From Tubulanus polymorphus (Eukaryota; Animalia; Nemertea), in NCBI RefSeq assembly GCF_964204645.1, contig NC_134033.1, positions 3,930,231-3,994,230 on the forward strand: DNA of 64,000 nucleotides, written 5' to 3'. The position numbers were made by a program, and so were the translations under genes. Each line of letters opens with the position of its first letter. The stretch's first letter is position 1. The notes beneath the pieces were generated by a model that was not told where the DNA came from, ran no database searches, and worked only from the letters and a program-made list of their open reading frames with translations. Of this stretch, positions 19,018 to 45,177 are shown one piece after another.

Positions 19018-19257
19018 GTACATACAAAATAGCGACCGAAAAGCTAAAAGCTCCGTCGTGGCCACTCCAGGTGCGATGTGTGGATCGGAAACACGTGGAC
19101 AGTTTGAAATCTGAGATGCTGGCACGCCCTGCATCAAACTTTATGTCCCTCGTAGGTCGTGCTACAGGGCCCATTATCTCTCCGTTAGAAAAAAATGTTA
19201 TCGAAATATTGGGTGGAAACCACACCAGAATCGCGCTACAGGAGCTTTTGATTGAAG
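19018..19257 (+). CDS. Exon 8 of the ParB-like gene, N-terminal half of the ParB/Srx-like domain
   Basis: tccgtag acceptor and gtgcgt donor. Encodes LQVRCVDRKHVDSLKSEM...IEILGGNHTRIALQEL, matching the ParB pattern (R...l..l..si ... hydrophobic strand-G-x-H-R/T-helix). Confidence 0.8.
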
Positions 19258-19432: not shown

Positions 19433-19468
19433 GTGCTGATCCGAATCATTATGGTTCAGCGATGGTAC
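19433..19468 (+). CDS. 5' part of ParB-like exon 9, upstream of the LTR insertion
   Basis: ttgcag acceptor. Encodes (G)ADPNHYGSAMV and joins in frame to 34533 once the element and one GTAC are removed. Confidence 0.8.
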
Positions 19469-20729
19469 TGATACACCGGTCACAATCCTCTCCTTAATCG
19501 TTGAATATAAAAACGTAAAGATCGGTCCCTGGCGAGAGAACGTGTCCGTGCACAAACCCAAATAATTAAACTAAAATGCCGAAATTCTGATTGAATATAA
19601 TAATAATAAAATGGATTTTATTTACCTTGATAATAGTAATATCTCCAGTACACAGTCCAATTCCTAACTCCAAATTCCTATTGTACACTACTGTTGGTAA
19701 CCCGTCCTAATTCTGGTATTTCCACCCAAATCTCAAGTATCTTTAACGAGCGTCCCTGGTAAGTCTGCTTTCTCAAGACTGCGGGCCTCTTTTATGGAAA
19801 AGATCGGCATTCCTAGAATGCCGACTCTCCCGTTCGACTTTTGGCAAGGAGCAGCAACCTAGCTGTCATGACGGTTTTGGACATGTAGAATTAGCCTTAA
19901 TGATTCGCTAATCTAAAATTATTTGAGAAACTGATTTGCCAAAGTAACTTTTCTTTCCAACCCTCCTGTCATAACGCGCTTTGATTTACTCACTCCCTAC
20001 TCATCATCGTTGAGAGAGCAGCTATTCTCTACGAGTTACCAACAGACATGTACACCAACAGAAACCTTAGAGAGCTAGTATTGATATTTGCCACAATTAA
20101 ACTTCCATAAAACTTAAGCGATTATAAAGGTCTTGTCCTTAATTAACATCCAGGATACTTAATTTAGATATATTTTCAAAACTTAGTTTTCACCTAGATT
20201 ATGGAACAAACTCATCGTTTCTTTTTCCAATCAACAATAGTAAACTTTTGATTCAGAAATACAATGTAATTAATTATCAAATCTAAAATCATTCTATACT
20301 TATTATACCAATTTTCATTTATAATTTAACTAACTCTATAATACTACAGGATAAAGCAAAACAACCATGTCTCCCTATACTTCCGGTTCTTCCTTTTATA
20401 GAAAGTAGTCGGGAGTATCAAGAAGTAACAGCGAGATCCCTGCACAAACCACACTATCAAAGCACCTCATCGTTCCGACCCAACCAATTACGTCTATCCT
20501 TAAGTTTTTAAAAATAATTCTGAATGTTTGCCAGATATCGACGCACAAGAACCGAGGAAGAATTATTTTTACCCCTGGCTGATTTGTTGTCAGCGCTGGT
20601 AGATCAAAGCATCAAACAACAACTTGCACACATCGTTTGCTGTCTGATACCCATAAAGAAACCACCAACGTAAACAAAAACCATCATTACAAACATTTTT
20701 TAGTTACTACGGAATCTTGCTGCGGATCA
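19469..20729 (-). repeat. 3' LTR (1261 bp)
   Basis: Starts tgatacaccggt and ends gcggatca. Matches 33261-34528 apart from a 4-bp indel, a 3-bp indel and one substitution that I could see. Minus-strand AATAAA near 19617-19622. Confidence 0.97.
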
Positions 20730-20742
20730 TCACTCCCTATCC
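20730..20742 (-). promoter_or_regulatory. Polypurine tract
   Basis: Minus strand reads GGATAGGGAGTGA immediately before the 3' LTR. Confidence 0.85.
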
Positions 20743-22215
20743 AGTTTAAATTTCGTCCCGAAATTTTGAATTTAACCCAACTCGTGAATATCCCGCTGAT
20801 ACCTCTAGAACAAATCCTGAAAAAGAACATTAGTAAACAATTCATTATAACGAGTAACGAGTTTGACACTACAACGCATATTAAAGTTCATGATATAGTA
20901 TATCATAAAACCGCATTTAAAGTTCCGGATACCCAATCGGAAAAAAGTTCATTCGAGACCGCTGTCCCCGCACACTAAACACTCGAAAGTTAAGCACAAA
21001 ACAGTTCACAGTTTGAGTTTAGAATTTACCGCGAAGTGACGCAACAGCTACCAGACACAACAAGGTACGTCATGGACGGACGAATGACGTCATCCACCGC
21101 AGTTCCTCGAAGCGCGTACTGCTACGTTGATAGTACGGCAAAACACATTTATGTTCAGCTGAATACTTGCTCGCTATTCATAGACGCTATAGTACTACGG
21201 TTACTATATCGGAGTCTTTTCTCCACAGTTAATATAGAAACGGAACAGTAATGTATTCGCATCTTACGGCTTGAGCGAACAACATTCCATCGAATGTTAA
21301 TGTAACTACACGGGAGCCATCTTGAACACACTCGGCTTTACTCCGCTAAAATGTCTACGGAAATTATCACTTTTCTTCACATTTCGTATCGCATTGGCCA
21401 GGTGTCTTTGTCCACCCTTCATCACTTAAGTTTGTGAGTATATAGCAAGTCTTCGAGAGTGACAAACACCACTAACAATGGCAAGAATCGCATGACGAAT
21501 CATCGAGCATGATTCCATCCCGTTAAAACCAACGCCCAAAGTTCGCTGTTGTATGTCGTATATTCGCTCCGTTTCTTCGTTATTTGACGAATCGGCAAAT
21601 TAATATCACTCATCTCGACCAGAGCATACCAGTTGTTGGTTTATCATACTATCAATTGCGTCGAATAGAGTCTCAGGATACCTCCCAACAAGTCCCCATC
21701 TCCATATGGTCACTATCAGGGGGGTACCCGTCGACATCTATTGCGGTTGACAGAAGAAGGCATTCTTCCATCAAAGTGCTGTCATATCTCGACGGTCCCA
21801 TCTTCACACATCCGATAAGGGTACCTTACAATCAAATAAAAACACAGAGATTATATAAAAATTTCATAACTCTTCCTTTTCTATCTGACAATTAACAAGT
21901 TCTACTCAGACTACGGATAATAAACACTGGAGATTATTGATATTACGGCGATAGGCCAATAACACGACAGTTAAACCTATAATCTATGTTTATTTTATGG
22001 TTGTCTTTATCTCACATAACTTAAAGGCTTAATAGTACTTATTCCTAATATATTTGTGTTTCATCATCATATAATAACAACTTTCCGACAATTTTGCAGG
22101 ACATATGCATCCTGACCTTATTACTGATTAAATTATACTTACGTCAAATCCAATGAGGGCATTCGAGCACCCTTATTCAGAATAGCTACTCTTAAATAGC
22201 TTTCAAATACTGCCC

Positions 22216-24849
22216 TCAGTACAGATATGGGTACAGCCTACTGGCATCAGCCAATAGCGAATTCCTGGGAATCCCCACCGAATAGTCTGGTGGCGACAGA
22301 TCGCCGCCAGGGGAAGCTGTGAGTGCCAGTATACCGGGCCCATGCTCAGTCCGAGCCTCATCATGTATAACCACGATCTCGGGTTCCACTGACGAAACTG
22401 TCAGCTGGGTCGCTTCTCGTAGTTCGGTAGTAAACGACCGATAAACCGCAACAACCACAACCTTACTCGGAACTGACACGAGCTGTCTCATCGTGAAGAG
22501 ACTTACTCGTAGGGGAACCGAGCAGGAAGTCGGCAGATTATACATCGTCCCTTGCGAACAAGTCAGTTGCTTAGTCTGCCAGGTTAAGTTCAAGCGGGCG
22601 ACTCCACAAACGACTCGTAACGCAACCTTAGTAAGAGCTGGAGGCTCGAAACAACATCTCGTTTCACAACCGGACAATGTTAGTAGAGGCAAGTCCAATG
22701 TCTGAATTCCATTCTTAAGCCTTATGGCTAGCCTAACCGGATATTTTCCCGGTGAACAAGGTGCAGGCAAACAGTGTCGGCACCTATAGCACATAGCACG
22801 CAATAAAGGTCTGAACACAATTATAACTATACCTACTACAATAACTAAGAACAGGACGACATCGACGCGCACATTCTTGGCTGTGACAACCTCCCGAATG
22901 ACCGTATTATTCCAGCCACCTCGTTGTAGGTCATGGATAGCGGGGTGAACAGTCACCATAGCTTCAGCGGTCGGAAGAAGTCCTGCTCCCAGAATTGATA
23001 AGGACCCTTGCGACTTTAGCAAAACGAATATTGAGAGCAGCATGCTGCCCGCAGAGAGACCAATAGCGAGCCAAGTGAGCCACCCTGTACCGGTTCCAGA
23101 CGAAATAACAGGTTCAGAATGATCAAATAAAGCGTCTGCTTGCGATCGGTACAGTTTAGCGTCAGTTTGAACGGTTCTTGCTAACTTTTTGAAATCCATG
23201 CTAAATTTAGTGTCCACCGCAGCCACTTTTGACCAGTTATTAGCCTTGAAATCCAGACTAGGCAGCGGTGCGTATGGCGTTCCCTGGAACATTGTTGCTC
23301 CAGTAACGTTGGACACTACATTCTTTGAAAAGAAACTATGTAGGACTGGTAAATTAACAGCGTGCGCAATGGTCACCGTGTCTTGGTTAATACATTTGTT
23401 AATTCTACCGGGCACAAAAAATTTTGATCCACGCAATGCACATGCACACCCAATTTTTACCAAACAAAAACGACATGCTTTTATTGCTTTTGGTGACTTG
23501 CCAGGGCAGGCGAGAGTCCAAAAATCGTCAGTGCCTGAAACAACAAAATAGCCATCCCCTACGTCGACTGCCAGTTCGGCCAGGCCCTGGACCTCATACC
23601 GTATGTGGCATAAGGCTAGCACCTGTGAGGGTTTATCGAAGAAAAGGCTACTCAGGCATGATTCTACGGTTGCTTCGCGCATGGACACGCGCTGCCGGCA
23701 AGTCATCACATCGGTTCCATAACAAGTAGCAAATATATCGTGACCCATTTCAGTGTAGTAACTACCGTCCCTAGTAGCGCCAAAATAAGGGGCTGTACCA
23801 ACAATCATTGAAGTGTTATAGGACGTTGCGTTTATTGGCACTGGCATTAAGACAACCGAGTATAAATCAAAATATGTCTGACCAGATTGCAAGGGGATTT
23901 TGATTGATATGTAAACAAATTTATCGGTCTTAGAAAAGCACACATCCTTAACTATGTAATAATAGCCTACATCCCTATTAGCTATTGAAAACCCAGAATG
24001 CATCCTATTTAATTTTTCGGACACATCGTCAAGAACCTTCGAAACCATTTTTGGATTAACCAGGGCTCTAGGCAAATATCCCTCCAATAACTTTTCAACC
24101 CCCTGCAACCACTCACTGGAAACTGCCGTCAGTCGTTCCACTAGGATGATATTTCTTATTGTCATGTCAGACGCCAATGCTAGCATACTCGCATCGACAC
24201 TTTGCTTTAGCAGTGTCGTTCGAATTGATTTAAGTTCTTTTGAATTGGCCACGTATGCAGAGGTCAGGCTACTGATTCGTTTGTCAGTCGCGTTAATAAA
24301 TGAAGAGAGTGTCCCCTGTATGTGGGTGATTTGATCCGAATTCAACTTGACTATTTTTTCTACTTTTTCGACGTGATTTTCTACTTGCTGAACTTCATCT
24401 TCGGTAGCAGTACCGAACAAGGAAGACGAAATCGATCCGATAAATGAAAGTGGTGCACGTTTGACCCTGCGCCCACTGGCGTGTCGTTTCTTTCGTGAGT
24501 CGGTATCTGCAGCATCAGGTATCATTTGTCTCATATCAGCCAATTGTCCCCTGATATGGGTCAACGTGTCTAACTGTAGGCGATGCGCCTCACGAAACAT
24601 TTCCAAATAGCCGGAGCAGTGAGAACGAAGTTCTGGCTGGACAAGAGAACAGCGTAGCCGCAAGCCTTTACTCGGGGGGTCATTAACAACTAGCCATGGT
24701 ATCGCGAACGTGTGAAACCAGGCACTGTCGCCATTATGGACTCCTCCAATCCGATGAAAGGCGACACCATAGTTTGGCCTCAAGACCGTCGAGGGCATCA
24801 GACAATAGGCCGACGACCATGTGGCCACCAAGATTACGACAATTTGCAT
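22216..24849 (-). CDS. env: Envelope glycoprotein, class I fusion (errantivirus env / baculovirus F-like), ~877 aa, with C-terminal extension
   Basis: Signal peptide MQIVVILVATWSSAYC, furin site RRVKR followed by fusion peptide APLSFIGSISSSLFGTA, heptad repeats, Cys-rich ectodomain, TM WLTWLAIGLSAGSMLLSIFVLL. The ATG at 24849 directly follows a tttttcag acceptor with a TACTGAT branch-point-like motif, implying a spliced mRNA. Confidence 0.92.
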   Translation of the reverse strand: MQIVVILVATWSSAYCLMPSTVLRPNYGVAFHRIGGVHNGDSAWFHTFAIPWLVVNDPPSKGLRLRCSLVQPELRSHCSGYLEMFREAHRLQLDTLTHIRGQLADMRQMIPDAADTDSRKKRHASGRRVKRAPLSFIGSISSSLFGTATEDEVQQVENHVEKVEKIVKLNSDQITHIQGTLSSFINATDKRISSLTSAYVANSKELKSIRTTLLKQSVDASMLALASDMTIRNIILVERLTAVSSEWLQGVEKLLEGYLPRALVNPKMVSKVLDDVSEKLNRMHSGFSIANRDVGYYYIVKDVCFSKTDKFVYISIKIPLQSGQTYFDLYSVVLMPVPINATSYNTSMIVGTAPYFGATRDGSYYTEMGHDIFATCYGTDVMTCRQRVSMREATVESCLSSLFFDKPSQVLALCHIRYEVQGLAELAVDVGDGYFVVSGTDDFWTLACPGKSPKAIKACRFCLVKIGCACALRGSKFFVPGRINKCINQDTVTIAHAVNLPVLHSFFSKNVVSNVTGATMFQGTPYAPLPSLDFKANNWSKVAAVDTKFSMDFKKLARTVQTDAKLYRSQADALFDHSEPVISSGTGTGWLTWLAIGLSAGSMLLSIFVLLKSQGSLSILGAGLLPTAEAMVTVHPAIHDLQRGGWNNTVIREVVTAKNVRVDVVLFLVIVVGIVIIVFRPLLRAMCYRCRHCLPAPCSPGKYPVRLAIRLKNGIQTLDLPLLTLSGCETRCCFEPPALTKVALRVVCGVARLNLTWQTKQLTCSQGTMYNLPTSCSVPLRVSLFTMRQLVSVPSKVVVVAVYRSFTTELREATQLTVSSVEPEIVVIHDEARTEHGPGILALTASPGGDLSPPDYSVGIPRNSLLADASRLYPYLY

Positions 24850-24895
24850 CCTGAAAAATAGGGATAGCAAGAATCAGTAATCTCGAAACCACGTA

Positions 24896-27800
24896 CTAGT
24901 CGTCTCTTTCTCGACGTCTCTTCTTATTTTTACGAGTTTTTCGCTTCACTTTAGCGGCATGGTCATCCCAATAGGCTCGAATGATTTCAGGAGGCAGGTT
25001 TTCGGCTGGCTCAAACGTGTTCTCATTATCGTCATAGCCAACCCATTTTATAAGATATTTCAGAATGCCTTTCTCTTTTTTGTGACGAATCACTCGTTCT
25101 ACATAATAGATTGGCTCAACCGGATTCGCAGGCTGATTTTGATCGCCCGGATCATCCGGTGCGAGGACAGGCCCCTCCTCAGGTTGATCCCCGTCCTCCC
25201 TGTCAATAGGTGGATTCTCAGGTATGTCGTCCTCGAGCGGCCTAATGTCCGTTGAAAAGAAATGCTTCATTCTATTACAATGTACTGGGACGGCCAACTC
25301 TTGATTCCTCTCATTCTCCAAAATGAAAGATACAGGAGAAATCTGTCGGACAATTCGATAAGGGCCCGTCCATTGATGAAGCAATTTCTTACTAAGCCTC
25401 TTTATTTTCTTTGGAGTGAATAGCAACACTTGATCACCTACTGCGAAATTTGGGGGAACGGCAGTCCTGTCGAAACGTTCCTTCATCTTCTCCTGCGCCT
25501 TTTTGATATTAGCATTGGCCAACTTCCTGGCCTCTTTTAACTTTGGCAACATTGCTTGGACAAAGCCTCCCGCATCAAAGTAAACGTCCCTCGGATTAAG
25601 TAAAGCAACGTCCATCGGCAACCTCGGTTCTCGGCCATACATGAGGTAGAATGGCGAGTATTGCGACGTATCCGAAGCTGGACTTACCCGATATGCAAAT
25701 AGAATGGGGTAAAGGTATTCGTCCCAATCGGTTTGGCGTTCATTGCAGTACATGCTCAGAGCCTTAACAATCACAAGATTCATGTGCTCGACTTGTCCCT
25801 GAGTTTGTGGTCTATACGCACTGGACCGTGCCCGTGGCGTATTACATAGCCGCGAAACCTCGCTGACTAATTTACTCAGGAAATTTGTTCCGCGATCGCT
25901 CTGCAAAACAGAGGGCGCCCCATGGCGACAAATGATTTGTTCATAAAAGATCGTAGCGACCGTCGTGGCTTCTTGATTAGTCATAGCAAAAGCTTCAACC
26001 CACTTTGTAAGATAGTCGACAAAGACCAATATGTATTTATTTCCCGAGTCCGTTGTTGGAAAAGGACCACAGACATCCATTGAGACTCTATCCCACGGCC
26101 CTGTGACAGCTATGGGGTTAACCGGGGCCCTAATGGGCTTCCCTGGCTGATTCTTAGTCGCACAGTCCTTACAGGATTTAATCCAATTTTCAACGTCTCG
26201 ATACATACCATGCCATTAATACCTTGCTCGCAAGGTTTCGTAGGTCCGTTTGTGACCCAAGTGACCGCCAGTCATTGAATCATGACCAGCCTCTAACATT
26301 TCCGCATACATACTTTTAGGTATGACCAACTGACGAGGCCCATCAGCCTCAATTTTCTTTTTAGAGTCCACATGGTAAAGAACTCCATCATCGTCAACAA
26401 AGAAGTAGTCTGACTGCAAAATAATTCTCCGGGCTTCCTTGTCGTCATCTGGCAAGGTACCATCAAGTAAATAGTCTATAAGACACACTAATTGTAAATC
26501 AGACCGCTGGAGCTCGCCCATGTTGACGGGTACAGGCCACTCATTGTCAGCCTCGAGAGCACACGTGTCGATAGTGTCTTCCATACTATCAGAGATGGGA
26601 TACGGGCGACGAGAGAGCCCATCGGCGTTCCCGTTTGCCTTGCCTGGACGATGCGATATGGAGTAGTCAAATTGCTCTAAGTAGAGTGCAATACGGCCAA
26701 CACGACCCGAAAGTGTTTTCATGGTCTGAAGATACCGTAAGCAACTGTGGTCTGTGATAATCTCAAAATGATATCCCCGTAAGTAGGGTTCAAACTTTTT
26801 GACTCCTGCTGCAACAGCTAAGAGTTCACGGTCCGTTGTAGAATAATTTTTCTCCGCTTTATTCAATCCTCGCCCCGCATATGCAATTGCTCTTTCTTGC
26901 CCATCCTGGACCTGCGCCAGGACCATGCCGATACCTTCATCGGAGGCATCAGTATATAATAAAAATGGCGATGCCCCATAAATGGGGAAGGCCAATACTG
27001 GGGCTTCGAGCATCGCTTGCTTAAGGGTGTCGAAAGCCTGTTGACAAGAAGCGTCCCATCTATACGGCACGCCTTTCTTAGTCAACTGGTGTAAGGGGGC
27101 CGCCATAGTGCTGTAACCTTTACAAAAACGCCGATAATAATTGGTGAACCCCAGAAAACTTCGTAGTTCTTTTAAAGTCGTGGGGACAGGCCATTCCTGT
27201 ACGGCTGCTACCTTTTCCGGGTCAGTAGCGATCCCGTCCTTAGATATTCGATGCCCAAGGAAGTCAATGGTTTTGACAGCAAACCGACATTTCTTGGGAT
27301 TTAGGCGAAGGCCTGACTCACGAAATCGATCGAAAATTTGAGCCAGGTGAATTAAATGACCATCAAAAGAATTCGAGTAACAGATAATATCGTCCAAATA
27401 TACTAGACAAAATTTCCCAACCAAGACTCTCAGCAGACCACCAGTCAACCGCTGAAAGGTAGATGGCGCCGATTTCAGACCAAATGGGAGTACCTTAAAT
27501 TCCAAAAGAGACGACTGTGTTATAAAAGCAGTCTTATCCCTACTGGCCTCGTCAACTTCAACTTGCCAGTAGCCACTCAGAAAATCAAGTGAGCTAAAGA
27601 ATGTAGGTGCCGCTTGACCAACCTGAGCCAAGAGATCATCGATTCTAGGCAGGGGAAAAGAGTCTGAACGGGTGACAGCATTCAATCCCCGATAGTCAAC
27701 ACAGAATCTCCACTTGACATCTCCGTCCGGGCTCTTTTTCCGAACGAGAACGACCGGGGCAGCCCATGGGCTAGTACTATGCTGTACTATCCCCATGTCT

Positions 27801-29992
27801 AACATCTGTTTGACATGCGTGTCAATAACTTCTTGCATGGCCGGAGAGGCTCTATAAGGCCTTTTCCGAATTGGGGCCGCGTCCCCTGTGTCAATGACGT
27901 GTTTGACTAAGTCAGTTTTACCAAGTTCGTCCGGTGTTCGTGCAAAAATGTCCCGATACGATCGTATTAGTTCAAGAAGTTCCGCTTTCTGTGATACAGA
28001 AAGGTCCGAGTCTGACATATCTATTTCCGGTATCCCAATGTCAGCAGATGTCTGAGGGTAGTCCACATGTGTGACAGACACCTCTGGAGGTCGGGTCAGC
28101 TGTCCCGAATTCCCTTCATTCTTCAGGGATTGGTCAAGTGACCACCCATCTGTCCATAAGTGGCCAAGACACATATCCTCATAGAGGGTGACATGTCGTG
28201 ATGTGGGATTCATGACCCGAACCGGAATGCCTGATTGCGTAACGTCGACAACTGACCTTGCACTCATAAGATCATGTGCCCTTAATTGATTTGCCGGCTC
28301 AAAGACTGCCACCGATGCTTGTGTCCTGTCAATCGAGTACTTTCCGTCTATGATGGCCTCACACGAGGGGGGAATGACAGTCATTCGCGTAACCTTGACG
28401 GACGAAGATTTGCCCAAATTGACAGTATTGTTGAAGTAAATTGCATCGGCCCCTGGTAACAAAAGGGCCTTTCTTGCATAATCAATAACTGCCTGGTTTT
28501 GTTCCAAGAAATCAGCTCCAAGAATTACATCGGACGTGATACCGTCTACCACGTACATAGAGTGCGTAATTTCCAAATTGCCTAACACAAAATCCACACA
28601 AATAACTCCTCTCAGGTCAAATTTAGTTCCATCTACCCCACGGGCAGATTGGAATTGACCGACCTGCAAAGGGCCATTTGATATCTGAGGATGAGTCGTA
28701 AAATAATCGTTCGATAATACAGATATTTCGGCGCCCGTGTCGATCAAAATACTTAACGGTGTCCCCGAATGGCTACCTGTCACTCGGTTAGCGACAGTTG
28801 CCATGATCGACGGGGAATAAACCTCTTGTTCAATAGCATTATTCTGACTAGAAAGAGACCATATGTCGTTGGTTGGCGTGTTACCTAACGTCGTCGTAAT
28901 AGGTGGAAGTTGTTCCTGATAGTGAATAGTAGGTTGAAACTCGGAGTTCGAATCTCCTATTCCAACATTGTCGTTGGTTGGCATAATCGGTTCAGACGTG
29001 GGGACAACCTGACCTCTGTCCTGTGCGTTGGACATTTCATTACTGATTGGTTGATGAAAACCGCTGGTATTCGAGGTGACAGGACGATCCCGTTCTTTTT
29101 CGAATAACTGACAACAATTTTTTTTTGTTGACACCTGATTTGATACATTTGATACGACAGTCTCCGTATCATGATGATCATTACGACATTCCGACCGTGA
29201 ACTTTTATTACTTAAATCAACTGACACTAGGTCACATTGTACCGCTGATTCGGAAGTTACCGGGTACTTATATTGATCAAGAGTGCGTTCGTGACAATTC
29301 AATTGAGACTTCTTATCTCTAAAAAGGTCATCTTCTGCCGAATCCGTCGGACCATTAACCCCTCTAGAGTGTGACCTATCAACACTAATATTGTCACCCG
29401 AGCACGCCATATCTGCACGTACCTCCTGCAATTCAACCGGATCGCTAAATGTGACCCTCCTGTGTCTCTTTACAGGCTCTCTAGTAACCGACAACTGGGA
29501 ATTATTCATCCAGCTGTCCTCAAAATTGGATCCCCGATCCATATAAAAATTTCCATCAAACGACAACTGGGTATTGTCCCTCCAGCTGTCCCCAAAGTTA
29601 CGATCTTGAATGTCATAAACGTCATCGGCACCCCATGAATGAGTGTGATAATCAATAAACTTATTTAAATGTATAGGTTCATTTTCATCTAAGTAATCTA
29701 CATTACAGTTCCCCTCAGGTTCAAAATAAAGAGAAAATGAGTCAGCTAGCATGTTGCCCTGATCAAATGACATGTCGAATATATCATCCCTATCGTCCTC
29801 AAAATAATCATCAACATCATTAAAAATATAATCGTCGATTACAGGACTGTCATCGTCATATCTATGATATGAATATGAGTCGTCCCACCAAAAATCACTC
29901 CTTATCGCCGAATCGGGCGAGGGCTCTGTTGACCATTCATTGCGCGACCCCACCCTTGTCGGTCCATAGGATGAGGTCCCCGGTCGTTTCCC
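24896..29992 (-). CDS. pol: Pol polyprotein: long acidic N-terminal region, aspartic protease, RT, RNase H, integrase, chromodomain; in-frame TAA at 26218-26216
   Basis: LIDTGAEISVL (protease); WRFCVDYRGLN, LPFGL and YLDD (RT); LYTDASD and ITDH (RNase H); HDSMTGGHLG...CKDC plus the DDE core (integrase); YYVERV...YLIKWVGYDDNENTFEP (chromodomain). ORFs 29953-26216 and 26206-24896 share a frame across RY*WHGMY. Confidence 0.95.
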
Positions 29993-31061
29993 TGACTAAA
30001 TGTTCGATTAGCCCCTTGGGAACCACGTCCAATATTCTGTGACCGAAACTGGCCCCGACCATAGTTCTGGGGACGGCGATTATCACGCTGAAATGCGTCC
30101 CGGTTTGGCGAGACCCGCGACCTTTGTTGGTCGTAACGCCAAGTTGGACAATTCCTGGCGTAATGACCGGGGGCGTGACATTGGTAGCACACCACCTGCC
30201 CATCTTGCGACCGTTGTGATGGACGGTTCTCGCTATAATAAGTACCCCTATCATCCCGCTGAGTTCGGGTAGACTTTTGTGTGTCCATGATTTGGCGGAA
30301 CATGTCCCGTAGCTCGTCATGACATCCCCTATCGCCTTATTTGGTTCGGTCCCAATTTGCGATATCTTGGGAGACGACAGGGCCTTTCGTTGTTCGATAT
30401 GTTCAGCCATTATGGCTGCCTCCCATGCATCCCTAAAAGTTGTTGGACGTTGCGACAACAGATAGACTGAAATGTCAGGCCGAGAGTTATTGATCAATAA
30501 CATCTTTTTCTGGTGGTCCGAGAACTTCAAACTTGAGGCCACCCGATCAATTTCCTCCGCAAACCTATCGACCGGTTGCGTTTCCCCCTGTCGCATTGTC
30601 GTCAAGGCCGACTCCTTGACCAAGGCCCACGAGGTAGGGCTAAATTGCGTGCAAAATGCATGGACAATATGCTCCCAGGGAGTGGTAATTTTTGTGCCGG
30701 TCGAATCGGTCGCCTGATCAATGCGGAGGTCATTGAATAGAACTAGGGCTGGGCCAGCCAAAAACCAATACAACTGTTTCTTTTTGGCATTTTCGTCCCA
30801 GCCTCTCAGATCGGCCAAACGATTGAACCCTCTGAACCAATCAGAGACGCACTGACTGTCTCGTCCTGTAAATTTCGGGAGCATGGAAAAGTTCATAAAC
30901 GCGGTGGCCGTGTCCACCTGTTCGCGTAAGCCCGAGAGGGCCTCTAAAACCGTGCCATTGCTAATTGGGGGGTGACCCTGTGGGCTCCCTCCTGTAGAGG
31001 TTTGCCCCTGCAAGCCACCCGCATCGTCCGACCCGTATGTTGTCCCGCTTCTAGTTGCCAT
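29902..31061 (-). CDS. gag: Gag (capsid plus CCHC nucleocapsid) with an apparent 1-nt deletion near 30318
   Basis: Retrotransposon gag-like motifs (LPKFTG, WDENAKK, MRQGETQPVDRF) lie in ORF 31061-29937. The zinc knuckle CYQCHAPGHYARNC and an RG-rich tail lie in ORF 30303-29902. Restoring one G (ATG GAC GAG CTA CGG) fuses them into ~386 aa. Confidence 0.88.
29947..29992 (-). promoter_or_regulatory. -1 programmed ribosomal frameshift signal (gag-pol)
   Basis: Slippery heptamer G GGA AAC (29992-29986) in the gag frame, a 7-nt spacer, then an 11-bp stem GACCTCATCCT/AGGGTGGGGTC. The -1 frame is open into pol (GKRPGTSSYGPTRVGSRNEW). Confidence 0.8.
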
Positions 31062-31119
31062 TTTCTAAACCAGAGTAATCAAATTATTATTATTCCTACG
31101 ATGATGCTACTTTTAAATT

Positions 31120-31917
31120 CTAAACCTGATCCTGGCGATCAGCCCAACAAAGTAGGTTATCCCAAGTACGGGCAACCTCCTCCACCGTAATCTCTTCCCT
31201 TAAAAATGACGAAAGAATGTCATCAATCTCCTCAAAAATCCACGAAGTGCAAGGGCCAAGGGCAGACTGACTTTCAGAAAATCGGCCTATACCCCCGCTG
31301 GGCGACAGATCCAACGATTGGTCACCCGCAGACGCACCTAAGGACAGGTCTACTGGAAAACTTTGGACAGGTGCGCCCAAATGTCCGCCCAACAGTTGGC
31401 CCGCTACAGGCGTAACAATTGCTAATGGTCTGTTTAAAGATCGAGTTGCAGACAGGTCTGCCGGTTGCTCTGAGTCGAACTGATCAATCCCTATAGGTGA
31501 ACCAGGCGGCACCGAACAACAGCATGAAAAGCTTGAGTCGCTGGAACCGGTTGATCCAGCTGATGACGGCGGCCGTGTGAAAGGTTCACCAGTCCGTATC
31601 GAGCTATTTCGGTTCGAATCCGTACCCGAAGGACTTAGGGGCGGAGAAGGGGTCACTGAAGACGAGCAAGTACAATTTACCTGGTCCTGAAAAACCGCTA
31701 ACGTTGGGCACTCACAATACAAACAACTATCCAAAAAGTCAAAGTCTGAAGACTGAGAAGTTGGAGTCCCAGCACTGGTCCCAGGGGAAGCAGTTATGAT
31801 GGTAGGTGTTGCGGGTGCTAAACTCACAGTAGTGAGACACCTTTTTCGGGGTAGTGTACTCCAATAACCAGTGCTACGACGTTTGTTTGTGCACCTTACC
31901 GGAATCGACCCCGACAT
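31120..31917 (-). CDS. Accessory ORF3 of the retroelement (265 aa, Ser/Pro-rich, three PxDLS-like motifs, acidic C-terminal helix)
   Basis: Intact ATG-initiated ORF on the element sense strand, bounded by AT-rich spacers, directly upstream of gag. Contains PADLS, PVDLS and SLDLS. Confidence 0.6.
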   Translation of the reverse strand: MSGSIPVRCTNKRRSTGYWSTLPRKRCLTTVSLAPATPTIITASPGTSAGTPTSQSSDFDFLDSCLYCECPTLAVFQDQVNCTCSSSVTPSPPLSPSGTDSNRNSSIRTGEPFTRPPSSAGSTGSSDSSFSCCCSVPPGSPIGIDQFDSEQPADLSATRSLNRPLAIVTPVAGQLLGGHLGAPVQSFPVDLSLGASAGDQSLDLSPSGGIGRFSESQSALGPCTSWIFEEIDDILSSFLREEITVEEVARTWDNLLCWADRQDQV

Positions 31918-32009
31918 TAACGTACTAACTTACAAATAATAATCACCAAAAAGAAAATTATACAATTCGAGTTTAATTGCTTATTATAATTTCAATAAAT
32001 AACCCCAAT

Positions 32010-32450
32010 TTAATCAAAGTAGCTGTATATTCGCGACTTATCAGCCAACAATACGTTATGGTCAGGGATAGCACATAAACTGAAATCCCCCTGATCCCAG
32101 GTAGACGTATAAGTATTAAGCCCGCTGGGTGGAGGGTTCGAATCCCTCAGAGTCTGTCCGACCGCTCCGTCGTTATTGGTACCCTTTGTGCTGAGTGGGT
32201 TTGAATCCCACAGTGGCTGTTCAACAGCTCTGTCGTTGGTAATACCCTTGATGCTAAGTGGGTTCGAATCCCACAGTGGCTGTTCAGCAGCTCTGTTGTT
32301 AGTGGTCCCCTTGGTGCTAAGTGGGTTCGAATCCCACAGTGGCTCCCTTAAATGAGCTGGTACCTCCCAACTAGACTTGGGGACTGGGGCAAGCGTGTGC
32401 GTCTTGGACACCGTTGCCCCACAGTAACCACGCCTCAACCCAGCTGACAT
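32010..32450 (-). CDS. Accessory ORF2 (146 aa, 4 x 21-aa L[WR]DSNP repeats)
   Basis: Intact ORF with a 63-bp in-frame repeat. Shares WEVPAHLREPLWDSNP with FEIPVEFREPLWDLNP of ORF1. Confidence 0.55.
   Translation of the reverse strand: MSAGLRRGYCGATVSKTHTLAPVPKSSWEVPAHLREPLWDSNPLSTKGTTNNRAAEQPLWDSNPLSIKGITNDRAVEQPLWDSNPLSTKGTNNDGAVGQTLRDSNPPPSGLNTYTSTWDQGDFSLCAIPDHNVLLADKSRIYSYFD
32132..32337 (+). repeat. Four tRNA T-arm/B-box palindromes at exact 63-bp spacing
   Basis: gagggttcgaatccctc 32132, gtgggtttgaatcccac 32195, gtgggttcgaatcccac 32258 and 32321. Confidence 0.92.
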
Positions 32451-32544
32451 GTATCAATCACAAACAACACCAAATATTTTTCACAAATAACAATCAGGCA
32501 ATCATAAAGTTAACAATTGACTGGTACTATAAGACCCCCTTAGT

Positions 32545-33201
32545 CTATGCTGGACAAAGGAAATAGCCGTCAGCGTCTTTATCACCAAAGAACAACTCGG
32601 CCGGGTTTGCAAAATCACGAACAAAATGTGCCCAAAATGGGTCGAATTTCTCGGGCACTTTCACTGGCTTTACCCTTTGCCGGCGTTCGAGAGGGTTTGA
32701 ATCCCTCGAGGTGATCGAAGCTTCGCGCTGAGTGTCGGTCGGGTTAGAATCCCGTAAAGGCTCAGCAGATACGGCCAAAGTCAGCAGTGGGTTCGAATCC
32801 CACAACGGCTCCCGATACTCTTCCGGGATTTCAAATGGCTGTGCACCTCTGGGGTTCGAATCCCGCAGTGTCTCAACAGGGTCGACCGGAGTTGGCAGTG
32901 GGTTCAAATCCCACAATGGTTCCCGAAACTCGACCGGAATTTCAAATGGCTGTGCACCTCTGGGGTTCGAATCCCGCAGTGTCTCAACAGGGTCGACCGG
33001 AGTTGGCAGTGGGTTCAAATCCCACAATGGTTCCCGAAACTCGACCGGAATTTCAAACGGTTTGGTATTAGGTGGGTTCGACCCCCACAATTTCTTTTTG
33101 TATGTTGAGTTGGTTGTAGTGCGGCGCTTCTTAGAGAATGCGTTCCTCGCACCACAGTGGGAGCATACGAAGATATGAACCATTTGAACAAAACTAAACA
33201 A
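32545..33201 (-). CDS. Accessory ORF1 (218 aa, or 212 aa from the ATG at 33183; N-terminal CxxC, basic patch, 8 DSNP-type repeats)
   Basis: First ORF after the PBS. Contains CSHC and KKRR; repeat periods of 48 and 63 bp are multiples of three. Confidence 0.55.
   Translation of the reverse strand: MFSFVQMVHIFVCSHCGARNAFSKKRRTTTNSTYKKKLWGSNPPNTKPFEIPVEFREPLWDLNPLPTPVDPVETLRDSNPRGAQPFEIPVEFREPLWDLNPLPTPVDPVETLRDSNPRGAQPFEIPEEYREPLWDSNPLLTLAVSAEPLRDSNPTDTQREASITSRDSNPLERRQRVKPVKVPEKFDPFWAHFVRDFANPAELFFGDKDADGYFLCPA
32691..33088 (+). repeat. Eight tRNA T-arm/B-box palindromes with 48/63-bp spacing (111-bp higher-order repeat)
   Basis: Motif starts at 32691, 32739, 32787, 32850, 32898, 32961, 33009 and 33072; core GGGTTCRAATCCC. 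Confidence 0.92.
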
Positions 33202-33240
33202 TTAATGTAAAAAGTTTATCGTAAACCGAAGATTATTGAT

Positions 33241-33259
33241 ATCCCGGGTTTCGGCACCA
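33241..33259 (-). promoter_or_regulatory. Primer-binding site for tRNA-Phe(GAA)
   Basis: Minus strand TGGTGCCGAAACCCGGGAT, 1 nt inside the 5' LTR boundary. Complementary to the 3' end of eukaryotic tRNA-Phe (...ATCCCGGGTTTCGGCACCA). Confidence 0.93.
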
Positions 33260-33260
33260 A

Positions 33261-34528
33261 TGATACACCGGTCACAATCCTCTCCTTAATCGTTGAATAT
33301 AAAAACGTAAAGATCGGTCCCTGGCGAGAGAACGTGTCCGTGCACAAACCCAAATAATTAAACTAAAATGCCGAAATTCTGATTGAATATAATAATAATA
33401 AAATGGATTTTATTTACCTTGATAATAGTAATATCTCCAGATAGTACACAGTCCAATTCCTAACTCCAAATTCCTATTGTACACTACTGTTGGTAACCCG
33501 TCCTAATTCTGGTATTTCCACCCAAATCTCAAGTATCTTTAACGAGCGTCCCTGGTAAGTCTGCTTTCTCAAGACTGCGGGCCTCTTTTATGGAAAAGAT
33601 CGGCATTCCTAGAATGCCGACTCTCCCGTTCGACTTTTGGCAAGGAGCAGCAACCTAGCTGTCATGACGGTTTTGGACATGTAGAATTAGCCTTAATGAT
33701 TCGCTAATCTAAAATTATTTGAGAAACTGATTTGCCAAAGTAACTTTTCTTTCCAACCCTCCTGTCATAACGCGCTTTGATTTACTCACTCCCTACTCAT
33801 CATCGTTGAGAGAGCAGCTATTCTCTACGAGTTACCAACAGACATGTACACCAACAGAAACCTTAGAGAGCTAGTATTGATATTTGCCACAATTAAACTT
33901 CCATAAAACTTAAGCGATTATAAAGGTCTTGTCCTTAATTAACATCCAGGATACTTAATTTAGATATATTTTCAAAACTTAGTTTTCACCTAGATTATGG
34001 AACAAACTCATCGTTTCTTTTTCCAATCAACAATAGTAAACTTTTGATTCAGAAATACAATGTAATTAATTATCAAATCTAAAATCATTCTATACTTATT
34101 ATACCAATTTTCATTTATAATTTAACTAACTCTATAATACTACAGGATAAAGCAAAACAACCATGTCTCCCTATACTTCCGGTTCTTCCTTTTATAGAAA
34201 GTAGTCGGGAGTATCAAGAAGTAACAGCGAGATCCCTGCACAAACCACACTATCAAAGCACCTCATCGTTCCGACCCAACCAATTTATACGTCTATCCTT
34301 AAGTTTTTAAAAATAATTCTGAATGTTTGCCAGATATCGACGCACAAGAACCGAGGAAGAATTATTTTTACCCCTGGCTGATTTATTGTCAGCGCTGGTA
34401 GATCAAAGCATCAAACAACAACTTGCACACATCGTTTGCTGTCTGATACCCATAAAGAAACCACCAACGTAAACAAAAACCATCATTACAAACATTTTTT
34501 AGTTACTACGGAATCTTGCTGCGGATCA
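33261..34528 (-). repeat. 5' LTR (1268 bp)
   Basis: Direct repeat of 19469-20729, adjacent to the PBS and followed by the GTAC TSD. Confidence 0.97.
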
Positions 34529-34532
34529 GTAC

Positions 34533-35501: not shown

Positions 35502-35671
35502 GTCGTTGATTATGATAACGTGATAATATTTCTAATTATATTAAAAGCTAAAAGCTTCGTCTTGGCCACACCAGGTGCGATGTGTGGATCGGAAACACGT
35601 GGACAGTTTGAAATCTGAGATGCTGGCACGCCGTCGTTGATTATGATAACGTGATAATATTTCTAATTATA
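35502..35671 (+). repeat. 90-bp copy of ParB exon 8 (source 19039-19128) flanked by a 39-bp direct duplication
   Basis: 35543-35632 matches 19039-19128 with 3 mismatches. gtcgttgattatgataacgtgataatatttctaattata occurs at 35502-35540 and 35633-35671. Confidence 0.93.
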
Positions 35672-39024: not shown

Positions 39025-39860
39025 TAGAGTCCTAGGACGCAATTTAGTAAAATGAGTCTCAAGACTCGCATCTAACGATGAATGAGTCCTAGGACGCAAT
39101 TTAGAAAAGCAGATACTAAAATGAGTCTTAAGACTCGGATCTAACGATGAATGAGTCCTAGGACGCAATTTAGTAAATCAGATACTAAAATGAGTCTCAA
39201 TACTCGAATCTAACGACGAATGAGTCCTAGGACGCAATTTAGAAAAGCAGATACTAAAATGAGTCTTAAGACTCGGATCTAACGATGAATGAGTCCTAGG
39301 ACGCAATTTAGCAAAGCAGATACTGAAATGAGTCTTAAGACTCGAATCAATAGATGAATGAGTCCTAGGACGCAATTTAGAAAAGCAGATACTAAAATGA
39401 GTCTCAAGACTCGAATCTAACGATTCAAACCAGTGAACGTTTTAGAATGAGTCCTAGGACGCAATTTAGTAAAATGAGTCTCAAGACTCGCATCTAACGA
39501 TGAATAACGTTTTAGAATGAGTCATAGGACGCAATTTAGAAAAGCAGATACTAAAATGAGTCTTAAGACTCGGATCTAACGACGAATGAGTCCTAGGACG
39601 CAATTTAGAAAAGCAGATACTAAAATGAGTCTTAAGACTCGGATCTAACGATGAATGAGTCCTAGGACGCAATTTAGAAAAGCAGATACTAAAATGAGTC
39701 TCAAGACTCGAATCTAACGATTCAAACCAGTGAACGTTTTAGAATGAGTCCTAGGACGCAATTTAGTAAAATGAGTCTCAAGACTCGACTCTAACGATGA
39801 ATGAGTCCTAGGACGCAATTCAGAAAAGTAGATACAAAAATGAGTCTCAAGACTCGATTC
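39025..39860. repeat. Irregular minisatellite, ~69-bp unit with two palindromes
   Basis: The unit alternates GAGTCCTAGGACGC and GAGTCTTAAGACTC (perfect 14-bp palindrome). Degenerate copies extend from about 38880 to 40030. Confidence 0.9.
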
Positions 39861-40211
39861 TAATTTCTTATCATATCAATATTGCAATTCCTAAAATGCA
39901 TGTTTTAAGACCCGATACAAATAATACCTCGAACTAATTTTTGAAAATGCGTCCTGAGACTCAATGTCTTGTATTAACTACAAAACTGGAATCATGTAAC
40001 CCGATTGATTGAGTCTCAGGACTCAAAGCTCTTGATTTTGTATGTAAGATTCTGTTTTATGTGAACTAATAAATGTCATTTTTACTGTATTGTAGACGCG
40101 AATCAGTTGTTTTTGGGTATGGAGAAGTGTATTCTGTGTTTATATTCATATTGCAGGAATTAGGACTAAAAAGGGAACTAAAAAGAAATTCCCTTTTTAT
40201 TTGGGAAGGCC

Positions 40212-41039
40212 TTATATTTTGTAAACTTGCACAAGTAACTGCGACTTAAACCAAGATCTACTTGAAATGAATTCAATACGTGCTTTATTAGTTTTAGTAT
40301 AAAACGATGAAGGTGGATGTCCGGTTTGTTCTCGTATAAGAGCTATAGGTTCACTGGTGCTGTTCCATCCGTCGTACATTTGAGGACGAGTTTTCATTGG
40401 ATCCTCACCTGGTTTTAATCTGAAATCTATCTGTATAAACGTTAAATTCATTGCAAACCCGTCTGGCATCTCGATCCATTCTAACAACAATTTACATCGC
40501 CGGATAGAAATCATAAATTCATAACCTGTTTGAGTTGGTAATTCTTTTACCGCACGCTGTGAGCATTTATGTACGATTTTCAAGCGACTCTGTTCTTCAA
40601 AACGATATATGATATAAACCCGACTACCTCGCGCTCCATCGACGTTACTCCTAAACAACAACGCAATCAAATCGTTCCTGCGGATATCTAGTTGTTTTCT
40701 TCCGGTAGCGCAGAGTTTGTTGTCGGACTCACCGACGAGAAGGTAGTTTTCGTTACAGAATATCGACGGCTCGATGTCGTAGTAAACTTGAACGAGAAAA
40801 CTTCCCGGTAAAGAGCTGTTGACGAACCAACGACATTCAACACCGCGCACTAACGACGGATAGTTCGGTGAAACGATGTAACCAGACGTAGAATCGACGG
40901 AGTATTGAGTGTTGTTACAAGATGAACTGACTGTAACAGACGCGGCTTCCTCGATAGAGTTTGCGCGATCAGCCCGCATAAATATACAGTCTCCGCAAGC
41001 GATCAGTAAAACTACGAACAACGCTTTCATTCGCTGCAT
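40212..41039 (-). pseudogene. Truncated 5' copy (signal peptide, CUB region) of the GRL101-like receptor gene
   Basis: About 40215-41835 is homologous to about 50580-52215. Homology ends abruptly at about 40214, where the junction creates a TAA. Confidence 0.85.
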
Positions 41040-44000
41040 ATTGAACACAATTCACGCTTCAAAACAAACACATTTCTAACTATTTCCAAGTTCGCTCGAC
41101 ATTTCTCATAATAGTCGTTGCAAAGTAATGACGAGTTGTCAGAATGTCAGAAGTTGACGAATTGATCGAGTCCAATTATTTTGTAAAAAGATCTCCCATC
41201 AAACTGGCGCCAGTCTCGTATTTCTGTAACTTTCACCTGCGCTCGGTTTCGCAGTAATTACTGCGGTTTCTAAATTTAGACGTGTTTCAATATATCGTGT
41301 TTATAATCATGTGCAATTATTTCTCTAATAATATTTACTGTGGCTCCCGAACTGCGTTCAGTTTGTGATAATATTCGACGACATTTTCTGTCTTTACCTC
41401 AAAATATTCTGCATCTCTGTAAAACACTTGGTCAATATCTGTTTCGACAATTCACACTCTACAGTCAATATAATAACTGAGTTGAAGCTAAGTGAAGCGC
41501 GTGGATATCTGATTGTGGTGAGTAAGGTCTTGTTTGGTACAGATTGTTTTGAAGAAACAATAGCAACCAAGTAAGACGGGGATGACAGCGGTAGAGAAAG
41601 AGAGACAGCGGTTCAGAATCTTTAGTTAGGAAACAGTGACAATAACCCCGGCGAGAATCTGACTCGCGCACTCTGATTCGGTCTGTTCTAAATTTGTCCC
41701 GTTCCGGACCCGTTTTGAACGGTCTAACTGGTTCGTAGTGTGAACGCGACGAAAGTCCACCCAATAATAAATGAGGTGAATTAATAATTCCGAAACTTAT
41801 GATCATTATTTAGAAACGTTTGATTCGACTCAATCTATGTACATTACAGTCCGTTTGGCATTTTACTTGACACGGATCAGCAAAATTCATCGTACTGAAT
41901 TGTTTTTATTCCTCCTTCCTCTTTTCGGCACAATTTTTCAACAAAAGAAAATTCTGTTATTCCTTTCCAGGTTTCAATCCAGTTACTTATAAAAGTTATG
42001 TTCATCTTAATTTTCAATCTCATGATTTGCGAAAACTAGTTCTTTTTTCATTTTTCCCATTATTTGAATCAACTTAATCACAATTTCCAATCATTTTTGT
42101 TTTTTTGCGGTCCTTTGATGTTTTTTGTGTTGAATACTCTAATAATAAAAAAAATTAATTTTTTTCCCATTTGTCTCCCTCTGTTTTGGAGCGCCTACAT
42201 GAATGATTGCAAAAAATGATGATCTTATATGTTCGGTCACCGATAGTTGTGGAAATGTTTGTGTGTCTTAATAATGATTATTGAGAATAAGTTGGCGCCA
42301 GCGGTAGATTCAACTTTTAAGTATCCGATATAATTTGTTCCTCTGGTACGAAATTATCGTCTTTTGATAATAGGTTTAACTCAGATATATTAAAGAACTT
42401 TTTGATATTGTATTATTTCAACACTGGTGTATAATCAATCGGTCTGTGAAAAAGAACATATATTTCAATATTCCCCAATCAACTGTGTTTATGCATTACG
42501 ATGTTATATTTCTGGTGGGAGGTGCTTCGTCTCTCGTGGTAGAAACAGTTATATTGATAAATCTAACTAACAGCGTCCTCGCGAGAGACATGAATTCTTA
42601 ATCCGTATCATTTTCATCGAGTGACTTAAATCATTGTTAAACTCAATTCTTCTTTCGGAACTAAATGACAATATTTCATAGATTTTTCAAATGTTTGAAG
42701 GTTGAATCGTAGATTACTATTTAGAAATATAACTCCTCCGAATTAGGGGAATTTTGTATCCATGAAACTTTAAATCCTAGTTTCAAACGGATGATTCCCT
42801 CTCGCTCCAATCAGACCTGCTTATATTTACGCAAGCGTCTTGGGGATATAGATGTTAAAGAATTGGATATAAAGTGTAAGCTTAATCCTTCTCAGTTAGA
42901 AATAATTTTAAAGGTTTTTACGAGTTAGTAATTTGGAAAACACGACTCCGGTAAAATTACTACCAATTCCAGAAAGTTGTGAGTTAGATATAACAAAAAC
43001 CAAAATTTACGGTAGTTATGATAATCGGGGCTGACTATCCATAGAATTGTCACCACAATACACTTATAAACTAGTTCATTCGTCCACGATTGAATGCAGT
43101 TTCGACGATTCAATTCATACGACAAACTATTTTCGCATTTCATCATTTCTCTGGTGCAGTGTCTGAAAACAGCGTCAGGCATCGTGTCGACGTAACCTTA
43201 GATAGATTTTCGTGTAGTTTGCATTTTTCATTAACTTGAAAAACTTTAGTTTAGTTTAGTTTAGTTTATAGCAACTTTTACAATGTTGTGGTTTTCAGTG
43301 GATCATAAAATACCAATTTGATTAAGGCCCTGTCTAATATAGAGGAGCAGTTCCTTGTTAAATGAGGAATATATGAACAGCGTTAATTAGTAAATTGTCC
43401 TAGTATACGTCCCATGGTTGGCCTGTTTTTGTTACAAGAACTTATAATTCTTTGAGCACTCACCTGGCATTTTGTATTAATTGTTTTAGAGGTACTCTGG
43501 AGAATAAAATCTGATTGATACAATTTACACGAATGTAAAACAGTTAAAATGAAATCAAAGATCGATTTGTTAATCTTAAGCTTTTTAGAGTGAATTCGTT
43601 ACTTTCAATCGTTTCATGAAGTTTTTAGCAGCAATCAAAGGTTCTGCTTTGTTTATTTCATCGTTGTTTCTTCGAATAAATAATATTGACTTTTATCACT
43701 TGTGTTGTGGTGACTCTTTCTCATATTCGAGAAGTTTGAATTGGTCAGTGTGGACAATTTATGAATTTACACGCGCCAATCCGCTGGACTTGGAATAATC
43801 CTACATGATTGCAAAAATTAGGATTCGAGCATGCAAGCGCTGGACCCTAACCCTTTGGTCCCTCTAGACCCATTACTGTTAACTGTAAACCCTGCGATTA
43901 AAAAAGCCGCCATTTGGTTCAGAGAAACGACACTATTCCTCGGTGGCAGCACCGTACGGTCTAATTCAATGCAAATGTACTATATTGATAAAGGAGAATG

Positions 44001-45177
44001 GAAGCAAGCGGGTTCGTAATGGGAGATACTTTTCCGAGTTTTTGAGCTGGTAAGTGATTTAGATATTCATTCATTACAATTAAAATTATAATAAATTTCG
44101 CTAGATGTTATTAAACGTCGAAGTTCCTAATTTACATAAATTTCATAGAATCTACTGAAAACGCTTTTAAAGATTTTTCATCGAATTAACATGGATGATA
44201 ATTCGGGTTATAGACAATGAAAATTCGATTTATGAAAGTATTGCAAACTAGTGTTTCATCTAATTCATGTAATTTTCAAAAGGATTTGAGGCGTTGCATA
44301 AATATATCATTTCAACGCGATCTACTTCGTACATTAGTGAAATATATTCGCTAAGATATTGAAGTTAAGATGTACAGGGTCAGTCTGGTATTATATCTAG
44401 CCAATGGTGGTCGTCGTGTCCATTGAACCATGACGTAATCTGTTTATATCGTGTCCTGTTATTATTGTCCTCGGTCTTTGAAATCACGAAATTGAATTGA
44501 ATTGTAAAACGTTCGATTCGAAGTGAATCAGTTCGAGGATCAATCCTACTAAACATTGGTCAAATCCAGCTTACAAATAGTTAGGTGTAGCCCATGCGAG
44601 CACTTTGACCACAATCTAAAGCTTAGCGGATACTGACGTATTCAGCATTTCTACATGAAATTGAACGTCCTTGAGATCACTCGCTGGTCTAACACGCTTT
44701 GAATCGTCCAGTAGAATTTAAAGTATTTGTTTTTTTTTTAATGTTGGCCTTTCGCAATTGCTCTGATTGCTACCGTGCCGATTAAACCAACCCAAATCGA
44801 CCGGAAGACTCAAACTCTTCCGGAATAAACTAAGGAGCTCCACGAGTCACATGAATCATGGCGAGTAGACATTTTGTGGAGTCAAAATGTCTTATCACCA
44901 TGATATAATCTCAGTAAACTGCAGAGCTGTAGGATAGTCAATCCAAACTTATGTTTCAAAAATGAGCGCAAATTATCGCAACAATGGGGATCTCGAGGGA
45001 CCGCCACAAAATGGCGCCTAGAAACTGGAAAATTATCTATTGTGAATCATTGTATTCGTTCATCTAATGCGGTCACGTAGGTCCAAACGATGTCGAACCC
45101 AAGTTTTAGGATTTCAAAGTTCAAAACCGATTTATAGATAGGCAAACATTATAAGGGGACTCGTGTCAAACTGTAGT

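Follow-up and report, generated by a model that had tools for sequence, protein, structure and literature searches.

The window, that is, the whole stretch of 64,000 nucleotides of Tubulanus polymorphus analysed here, carries on its minus strand a 15.06-kb LTR element, which is the setting of the palindromes described below (Table 1). One substitution and two short indels separate the 5' from the 3' LTR, and this near-identity, together with the GTAC on both sides, points to a young insertion. The element belongs to the env-carrying Ty3/gypsy elements that PMC13524379 names errantiviruses, with paired LTRs, a target-site duplication, a tRNA PBS, the order protease-RT-RNase H-integrase and an F-type env downstream of pol. 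The same source reserves uninterrupted gag, pol and env for the intact element, which is a matter separate from the kind, and in this copy two of the three are interrupted: gag is broken, since the capsid part and the zinc knuckle lie in different frames, and pol has one in-frame stop inside the integrase zinc-binding domain. The best matches of the RT-RNase H region are at most 56% identical. Over its first 12 bases the PBS is identical to the Phe_GAA/His 12-mer listed in supplement 1 of PMC13524379, and a Phe-type PBS, as found here, is rare in the table of that paper. Ahead of the protease, pol contains about 400 acidic low-complexity codons (28810-29995, minus strand) that have no Pfam match and include the last palindrome. 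At the end of the LTR (33268-33400), read depth exceeds that of the leader several-fold and many indels occur, which suggests that many solo LTRs or related families share this end.

Table 1. Features of the element and its palindromes, with positions in the window
Feature	Position	Strand	Description
5' LTR	33261..34528	-	1268 bp, TG...CA; GTAC target-site duplication at 34529-34532
PBS, tRNA-Phe type	33241..33259	-	starts one base past the 5' LTR
Leader ORF1	32545..33183	-	212 aa; N-terminal CxxC and basic patch, then 8 (L/S)(W/R)DSNP-type repeats
Array A, 8 palindromes	32691..33088	+	48/63-bp spacing; 111-bp tandem unit at 32784-33057
Leader ORF2	32010..32450	-	146 aa; four (W/R)DSNP repeats
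Array B, 4 palindromes	32132..32337	+	63-bp unit
Leader ORF3	31120..31917	-	265 aa; Ser/Pro-rich, 12 Cys; absent from the initial annotation
Outlier palindrome in ORF3	31610..31622	+	3-bp stem, C-G outer pair; DSN phase
gag	29902..31061	-	capsid part 29937-31061; zinc knuckle 29902-30336 (Pfam)
pol	24896..29995	-	protease, RT, RNase H, integrase, C-terminal chromodomain (Pfam)
Outlier palindrome in pol N-terminal spacer	28943..28957	+	4-bp stem, A-T second pair; DSN phase
env, F-type	22216..24873	-	Baculo_F, E 7.5e-10 (Pfam); 885-codon open frame
3' LTR	19469..20729	-	1261 bp, purine-rich tract before the LTR; GTAC target-site duplication at 19465-19468

Three consecutive ORFs, each beginning with ATG, occupy the 2.2-kb leader between PBS and gag, and AT-rich spacers of 60-95 bases lie between them. 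A T-rich spacer precedes each leader ORF and gag (31062-31110, 31918-31965, 32451-32500 and 33184-33230, minus strand), and TTAG stands 3-12 bases ahead of the ATG in ORF1, ORF3 and gag; judged by sequence, these TTAG sites could be candidate splice acceptors for separate accessory mRNAs. Variation was taken from four runs of the same species in one study, of which X1 is possibly the source of the window, and from the X5 reads of a second study. The X5 raw reads were mapped to the stretch twice and the best-supported differences were used (the best 40 of 520 and the best 40 of 55). The reads reveal several sequence classes of the element in the same species. In ORF1, 14 of the 27 differences listed from the first mapping (among the best 40 of 520) are synonymous against 7.8 expected (P 0.008), and 10 of 20 are synonymous when seven tandem duplicates are removed from the same best 40 of 520 (P 0.04). 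Within the non-repeated part of ORF1 at 32640-32741, 12 of 18 listed differences are synonymous, with 4.8 expected. The pooled count, which leaves out the seven duplicates and 12 rows of other-unit reads on 32748-32783 (5 of the 12 synonymous), gives 27 synonymous among 47 listed differences against 13.7 expected (P about 4e-5). On this synonymous excess, ORF1 is a selected gene, protein-coding and under purifying selection; one sequence class has a premature stop in it. ORF3 is probably coding (synonymous changes in 5 of 9 listed differences, third positions in 6 of 9), and ORF2 is plausibly coding and weakly tested, as its two listed differences are both non-synonymous and two of three length variants are in frame. 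Between copies, 8 of 11 length variants are in frame, in part because the repeat units are multiples of three.

The leader proteins have no recognizable kin in the collections searched. No ORF1 homologue was found among 475 candidates, no Pfam match past the cut-off for ORF1-3, no homologue of gag residues 40-250 among 938 candidates, and no (W/R)(D/E)SNP in the 121 proteins examined. The sole match of ORF1 among 1.84 billion representatives, a HEAT-repeat-like protein, was rejected, the similarity being one of Trp/acidic repeats. A single-sequence AlphaFold prediction of ORF1 is of low confidence and mostly unstructured (pLDDT 49).

Between PBS and gag, 12 T-arm-like palindromes were found, eight in ORF1 and four in ORF2, and the count, the plus strand and the spacings of 48 or 63 bp given for them in the initial annotation were borne out in all 12. 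The first G of GGTTCGAATCC lies at 32135, 32198, 32261 and 32324 in array B (spacing 63/63/63) and at 32694, 32742, 32790, 32853, 32901, 32964, 33012 and 33075 in array A (spacing 48/48/63/48/63/48/63). When up to one mismatch is allowed, the window contains 16 occurrences of the motif where 2.27 would be expected, a count that none of 100 shuffles reached. The form GGGTTCRAATCCC, under which the motif had been described, is exact in 8 of the 12 copies, while four have loop variants (two TTTGA, one TTAGA and one GACC). The tandem arrays measure 63 bp in 3.3 copies with 84% matches and 111 bp in 2.5 copies with 95% matches; the twelve copies are about seven unit types, not 12 independent sites. 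Stems are of 5 bp in nine copies, 4 bp in one and 3 bp in two (copies 32853 and 32964 in this window), and never longer.

The previous description proved right for the stem sequences, for the S>L and D>G variants and for the loop variants that are synonymous. The S>L and TTTGA variants do exist, but both are transitions at the central CG and are hardly informative on either constraint; TCG is the element's commonest Ser codon, and CpG decay as the sole cause of the loop variants is unproven. The two extra copies in ORF3 and pol, which had also been pointed out, are real, since 20731-32100 contains two such hairpins against 0.009 expected and none of 1000 shuffles contained two or more. The 14 palindromes, spread over four ORFs, all share the plus strand, which is antisense to the element, and the same codon phase (DSN).

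The palindrome is retained at the level of bases. Mean identity among the seven unit types is 0.80 within the 17-base arm versus 0.35 in the flanks. All 9 types, with the outliers counted in, have AAC as the Asn codon, and the long ORFs of the element use AAC in 27% and AAT in 73%; the Asp codon is GAT in 8 of 8 types and the Ser codon TCG in 7 of 9, and the Leu, Pro and Glu codons adjoining the arm are variable among types. Stem pair 4, whose column identities among the seven unit types are 0.19 and 0.24, is complementary in six of the seven, in the three states A-T, T-A and C-G, and its 3' partner falls on the third, silent position of the Pro codon. This is one of 210 arrangements, with a permutation P of 0.005 if the types were independent; the types are related by descent, so this value overstates the case, and three lineages give about 0.06-0.17 by a hand estimate. 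The seventh unit type has a perfect GCGGG/CCCGC stem in most X5 reads (84 and 87 of 114 at 32851 and 32850), and both differences between the window and the X5 majority are silent. Other outer pairs are compensated in the pol outlier (A-T), the ORF3 outlier (C-G) and one X1 contig (A-T). Loop base 59, which is free in the B box, silent in the codon and completes the palindrome, is A in 13 of 14 copies. TTCGAA is kept in only 6 of the 12 array copies of the window, and at two sites where the window copy deviates it is the majority (55 of 90 reads at 32698 and 154 of 180 at 33017).

Decay of single copies is seen as well. In the class to which this copy belongs, C56 is gone from three units and two stem pairs are missing in two others, every one of these losses being silent. 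One sequence class, assigned by contig depth, has three silent one-sided stem changes at 32692, 32707 and 32788, of which one strand can accommodate two as G-U pairs and the opposite strand one. Loop base 58 is altered at 32970 in 26 of 86 reads, and the PBS-proximal unit type varies exactly at T-loop positions 59-60, a pattern to be expected of a B box or T loop more than of a palindrome. The silent drift destroying the palindrome, which the initial annotation had set against its own claim, is thus found in part: several recent silent changes weaken stems or loops. Its claim of joint constraint on protein and nucleic acid is supported, given the synonymous differences of ORF1 (27 of 47), the complementarity of pair 4 (6 of 7) and the near-fixed silent bases of D, S and N. 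As far as sequence comparison goes, the pattern reads as long-standing selection at the level of bases, in a redundant array where individual copies may decay. The palindrome array itself is real and dual-coded, and it lies in accessory ORFs of a young element of errantivirus type.

Tentatively, and at somewhat less than an even chance, the 17-base units are taken as redundant pairing signals of the genomic RNA that would serve genome dimerization and packaging. The signal is placed at the level of RNA because complementarity, not a fixed sequence, is kept, and conserved self-complementarity implies relevance in single strands. Read as RNA, each unit of the genomic RNA would form a hairpin with the loop A-UUCGAA, which may open and pair over 16 bp with another unit, either of that RNA molecule or of a different one, comparable to PAL1-PAL2 of Ty1. 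Redundancy would allow the loss of individual copies to be tolerated, and the unit may have originated from a tRNA T-arm fragment that was multiplied by template slippage in three-base steps; repeat number differs between copies, mostly in frame. For two intact units, the 16-bp dimer is predicted to be 11.5 kcal/mol better than two hairpins, which is what any palindrome yields. On the genomic strand in local context, the predicted probability of the closing pair is at least 0.5 in only 5 of 14 copies; folding of the whole region gives z-scores of -2.2 and -0.7, and the units are predicted to pair with one another too. By analogy, the position of the array directly 3' of the PBS fits the placement of dimerization and packaging signals. 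In Ty1, leader palindromes serve dimerization and packaging through a PAL1-PAL2 duplex (PMC6844567). The likeness to these palindromes and to retroviral dimer-initiation palindromes is that of a self-complementary 5'-leader hairpin with a possible extended intermolecular duplex, here a predicted one (PMC6844567, PMC4974528). In contrast to the two or three copies described for Ty1 PAL and retroviral DIS in these sources, 12-14 copies are spread here over 4 kb within coding frames; the units here, unlike those, have the shape of an antisense tRNA T arm, and their function is a candidate one.

An account by selection on proteins only, in which the palindrome is a tRNA-derived scrap that seeded slippage, was copied and was sometimes perfected by fold-back synthesis, is doubtful as a whole; a passive origin is nevertheless a strong rival, because recent silent changes erode several copies, and these changes in stem and loop are mostly silent and uncompensated. 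Protein-level signal is strong in ORF1, the single codon phase of all 14 palindromes across four ORFs suits a peptide repeat, copies differ in repeat number with 8 of 11 length variants keeping the frame, template switching perfects imperfect inverted repeats (PMC3820800), and no array was found in 88 distant relatives, of which 19 extend 5.3 kb upstream. Such an account leaves aside that the silent positions of the arm are fixed while the flanks have diverged past alignment, and that the residues around DSNP (W/R, L/S, P/L/R) are alike in bases and not in chemistry. Furthermore, the isolated ORF3 and pol outliers retain stem and loop, and a contig with a stop in the ORF2 frame retains a compensated stem. 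Turning from protein to DNA, the initial annotation had proposed an insulator, and a TFIIIC-binding B-box cluster acting as a chromatin barrier for the element is rather unlikely. The Su(Hw) insulator of gypsy occupies a leader position comparable to that of the array. A barrier would be useful, since a chromodomain integrase, and a chromodomain is found in pol by Pfam, would likely target the element to silent chromatin. The consensus GTTCRANNC is fitted by 9 of the 12 array copies and 11 of 14 overall, all palindromes are on one strand, the variation of the PBS-proximal unit at 59-60 falls on free positions, and an A box with at most one mismatch occurs in none of the 12 array copies, as at Extra-TFIIIC (ETC) sites, which are TFIIIC-dependent barriers (PMC12409998). 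The likeness to these sites lies in clustered B-box consensus without A boxes (PMC12409998, PMC5391098); the differences here are pairing conserved outside the B box, loss of invariant bases in several copies and the coding location. TFIIIC reads B-box bases and DNA shape, and mutation of C56 cuts yeast binding 370-fold (PMC11811891); the covarying pair lies outside the TFIIIC-contacted bases given in that source, base 59 is fixed beyond what a B box needs, and C56 is lost in 3 of 12 copies. Two of the C56-less copies, near 32694-32750, are also present in an X1 contig (summed depth 124.8) and are thus not private to this insertion, and base 58 is altered in another sequence class. A TFIIIC insulator is accordingly a possible function that is not favoured, because self-complementarity is conserved beyond the B box, and RNA pairing is favoured over it.

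The T-arm shape itself allows a further use at the RNA level, in which the genomic RNA anneals to T arms or fragments of non-primer tRNAs, or the antisense RNA presents T-arm mimics to tRNA-binding or tRNA-modifying enzymes; this is improbable. Box B of brome mosaic virus is a precedent for a T-arm mimic, and the HIV-1 PAS is a primer-pairing site comparable to those of Ty1 and Ty3. The geometry here is exactly that of a T arm, with a 7-base loop and stems of at most 5 bp, variation at 57, 59 and 60 obeys the T-loop consensus, and Ty1 and Ty3 pair with the T and D arms of the primer (PMC4974528). Against such pairing or mimicry, contiguous matches reach at most six bases to the PBS-implied primer end and at most eight to the window's tRNA-Glu, the array has no tRNA call and only sub-threshold Rfam matches, and a mimic would be oriented antisense to the element. 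Primer loading, which the initial annotation had also put forward as possible, is not supported for the cognate primer, since the PBS implies a different T stem (3' strand CCGGG versus CCCAC/CCCTC/CCCGC in the array) and the match is limited to the six bases; unlike the extended primer-pairing sites of Ty1 and Ty3 (PMC4974528), the array has no complementarity beyond this to the T arm of its own primer. A broader statement, that a multi-copy T-arm code in accessory-gene codons is read by the host tRNA machinery (TFIIIC on DNA, or tRNAs or T-arm-binding proteins on RNA) and shields the provirus from silencing or assembles the genome, is unlikely. Two other structures were considered and rejected. 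A tRNA or tRNA-like cloverleaf was set aside on the missing tRNA call and the sub-threshold Rfam matches, and a Pol III transcription unit on the lack of an A box in all 12 copies and of a T run within either array. Bovine leukemia virus is alike in being a retrovirus with several clustered B boxes, and each B box of its Pol III miRNA units is preceded by an A box and a terminator (PMC12498455); a cassette of this kind fails here for want of A boxes and terminators.

If the units are RNA pairing signals, they would add to a small set: cis signals for dimerization and packaging have been mapped in few retroviruses, in Ty1 and in Ty3, and hardly in the ancient env-carrying gypsy elements of invertebrates. 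With 12-14 copies of a 17-base unit whose silent positions can be changed independently of the protein, the array is an unusually clean handle for separating functions of RNA structure, DNA binding and peptide. The three accessory ORFs without detected relatives, with ORF1 under clear purifying selection, give the element the look of a complex retrovirus. Should TFIIIC or tRNAs prove to read the array, a retroelement would be seen to mimic tRNA by a new route.

The distribution of the array was followed through the reverse transcriptase. An RT search with the single sequence gave no match; an alignment-based search gave 88 related-RT loci, all at most 52% identical, of which 19 reach 5.3 kb upstream. 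None of the 88 has at least three antisense T-arm hairpins within 6.5 kb upstream of the RT (the window has 14), and the array looks lineage-restricted under thin sampling. Pattern scans returned 27 viral loci with two copies and at least 117 metagenome loci with three. None of the 144 listed loci gave a tblastn match with the ORFs of the element, and all were set aside; they resemble short duplicated tRNA 3' ends. The three-copy pattern occurs in two large viral contigs, and the exact EPLWDSNP-coding pattern in no viral locus.

By domains, the element resembles the ancient chromodomain errantiviruses of PMC13524379, a clade with F-type env in Cnidaria, Mollusca and Annelida, in its LTRs, PBS, gag, pol with C-terminal chromodomain and F-type env. 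It differs from them in the three ORFs and the palindrome array between PBS and gag and in its broken gag and pol; no ORFs or tandem repeats between PBS and gag were found in the available part of that paper. The MDG1/412 group of Drosophila also has small accessory ORFs ahead of gag, sORF1 and sORF2, which evolve under purifying selection (PMC11952523). In contrast to these, the three ORFs here are repeat-built and of 146-265 aa, sequence similarity to them was not found, and env is also present. The FAST-like fusogen of MDG1-group sORF2, a short ORF marked by an N-myristoylation Gly2 and a transmembrane helix, differs too, as the ORFs here begin MV, MS and MS and hence have no Gly2, and the available text of PMC11952523 reports no embedded palindrome array for the sORFs. 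The literature covered on LTR elements (B boxes, T arms, the motif, leader ORFs and repeats), a scope outside which most subscription papers fall, describes no such array.

Several further loci came up in these searches. Many metagenome contigs have at least three T-arm-like motifs 21-71 bases apart, some in long regular arrays (L039, L072, L129, L132), which are presumably repeated tRNA 3' ends. A Ty3/gypsy-like RT is encoded by 79 contigs (L156-L234) from bacterial and archaeal genome bins, and these contigs are most likely eukaryotic host DNA. One of them, L223, filed under a bacterial genome, carries a different gypsy element with 78-bp repeats at 1-191 and 8803-9033; these hold a T-loop-like hairpin on the sense strand in an Arg/Ser-rich ORF downstream of pol and are probably unrelated to the array.

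The remainder of the window gives the surroundings of the element. A 90-base direct repeat of 97% identity (19039-19128 and 35543-35632) flanks it outside the LTRs, which suggests insertion in duplicated or repeated host sequence. The minus strand at 40212-51419 has long open frames with CUB, lectin-like, six LDLa, LRR and 7TM parts, the CUB part being duplicated; we take this receptor locus to be GRL101-like. An LDLa-LRR-7TM receptor frame so near, along with the errantivirus kind of the element, suggests by itself an invertebrate animal host. One tRNA-Glu gene lies at 53074-53146. Isolated B-box-like sites with 3-bp stems and no tRNA call occur at 59376-59386 and 48246-48256 (minus), and minisatellites with units of 69 bp and 77 bp, about 11 copies each, occupy 39048-39863 and 54813-55644.
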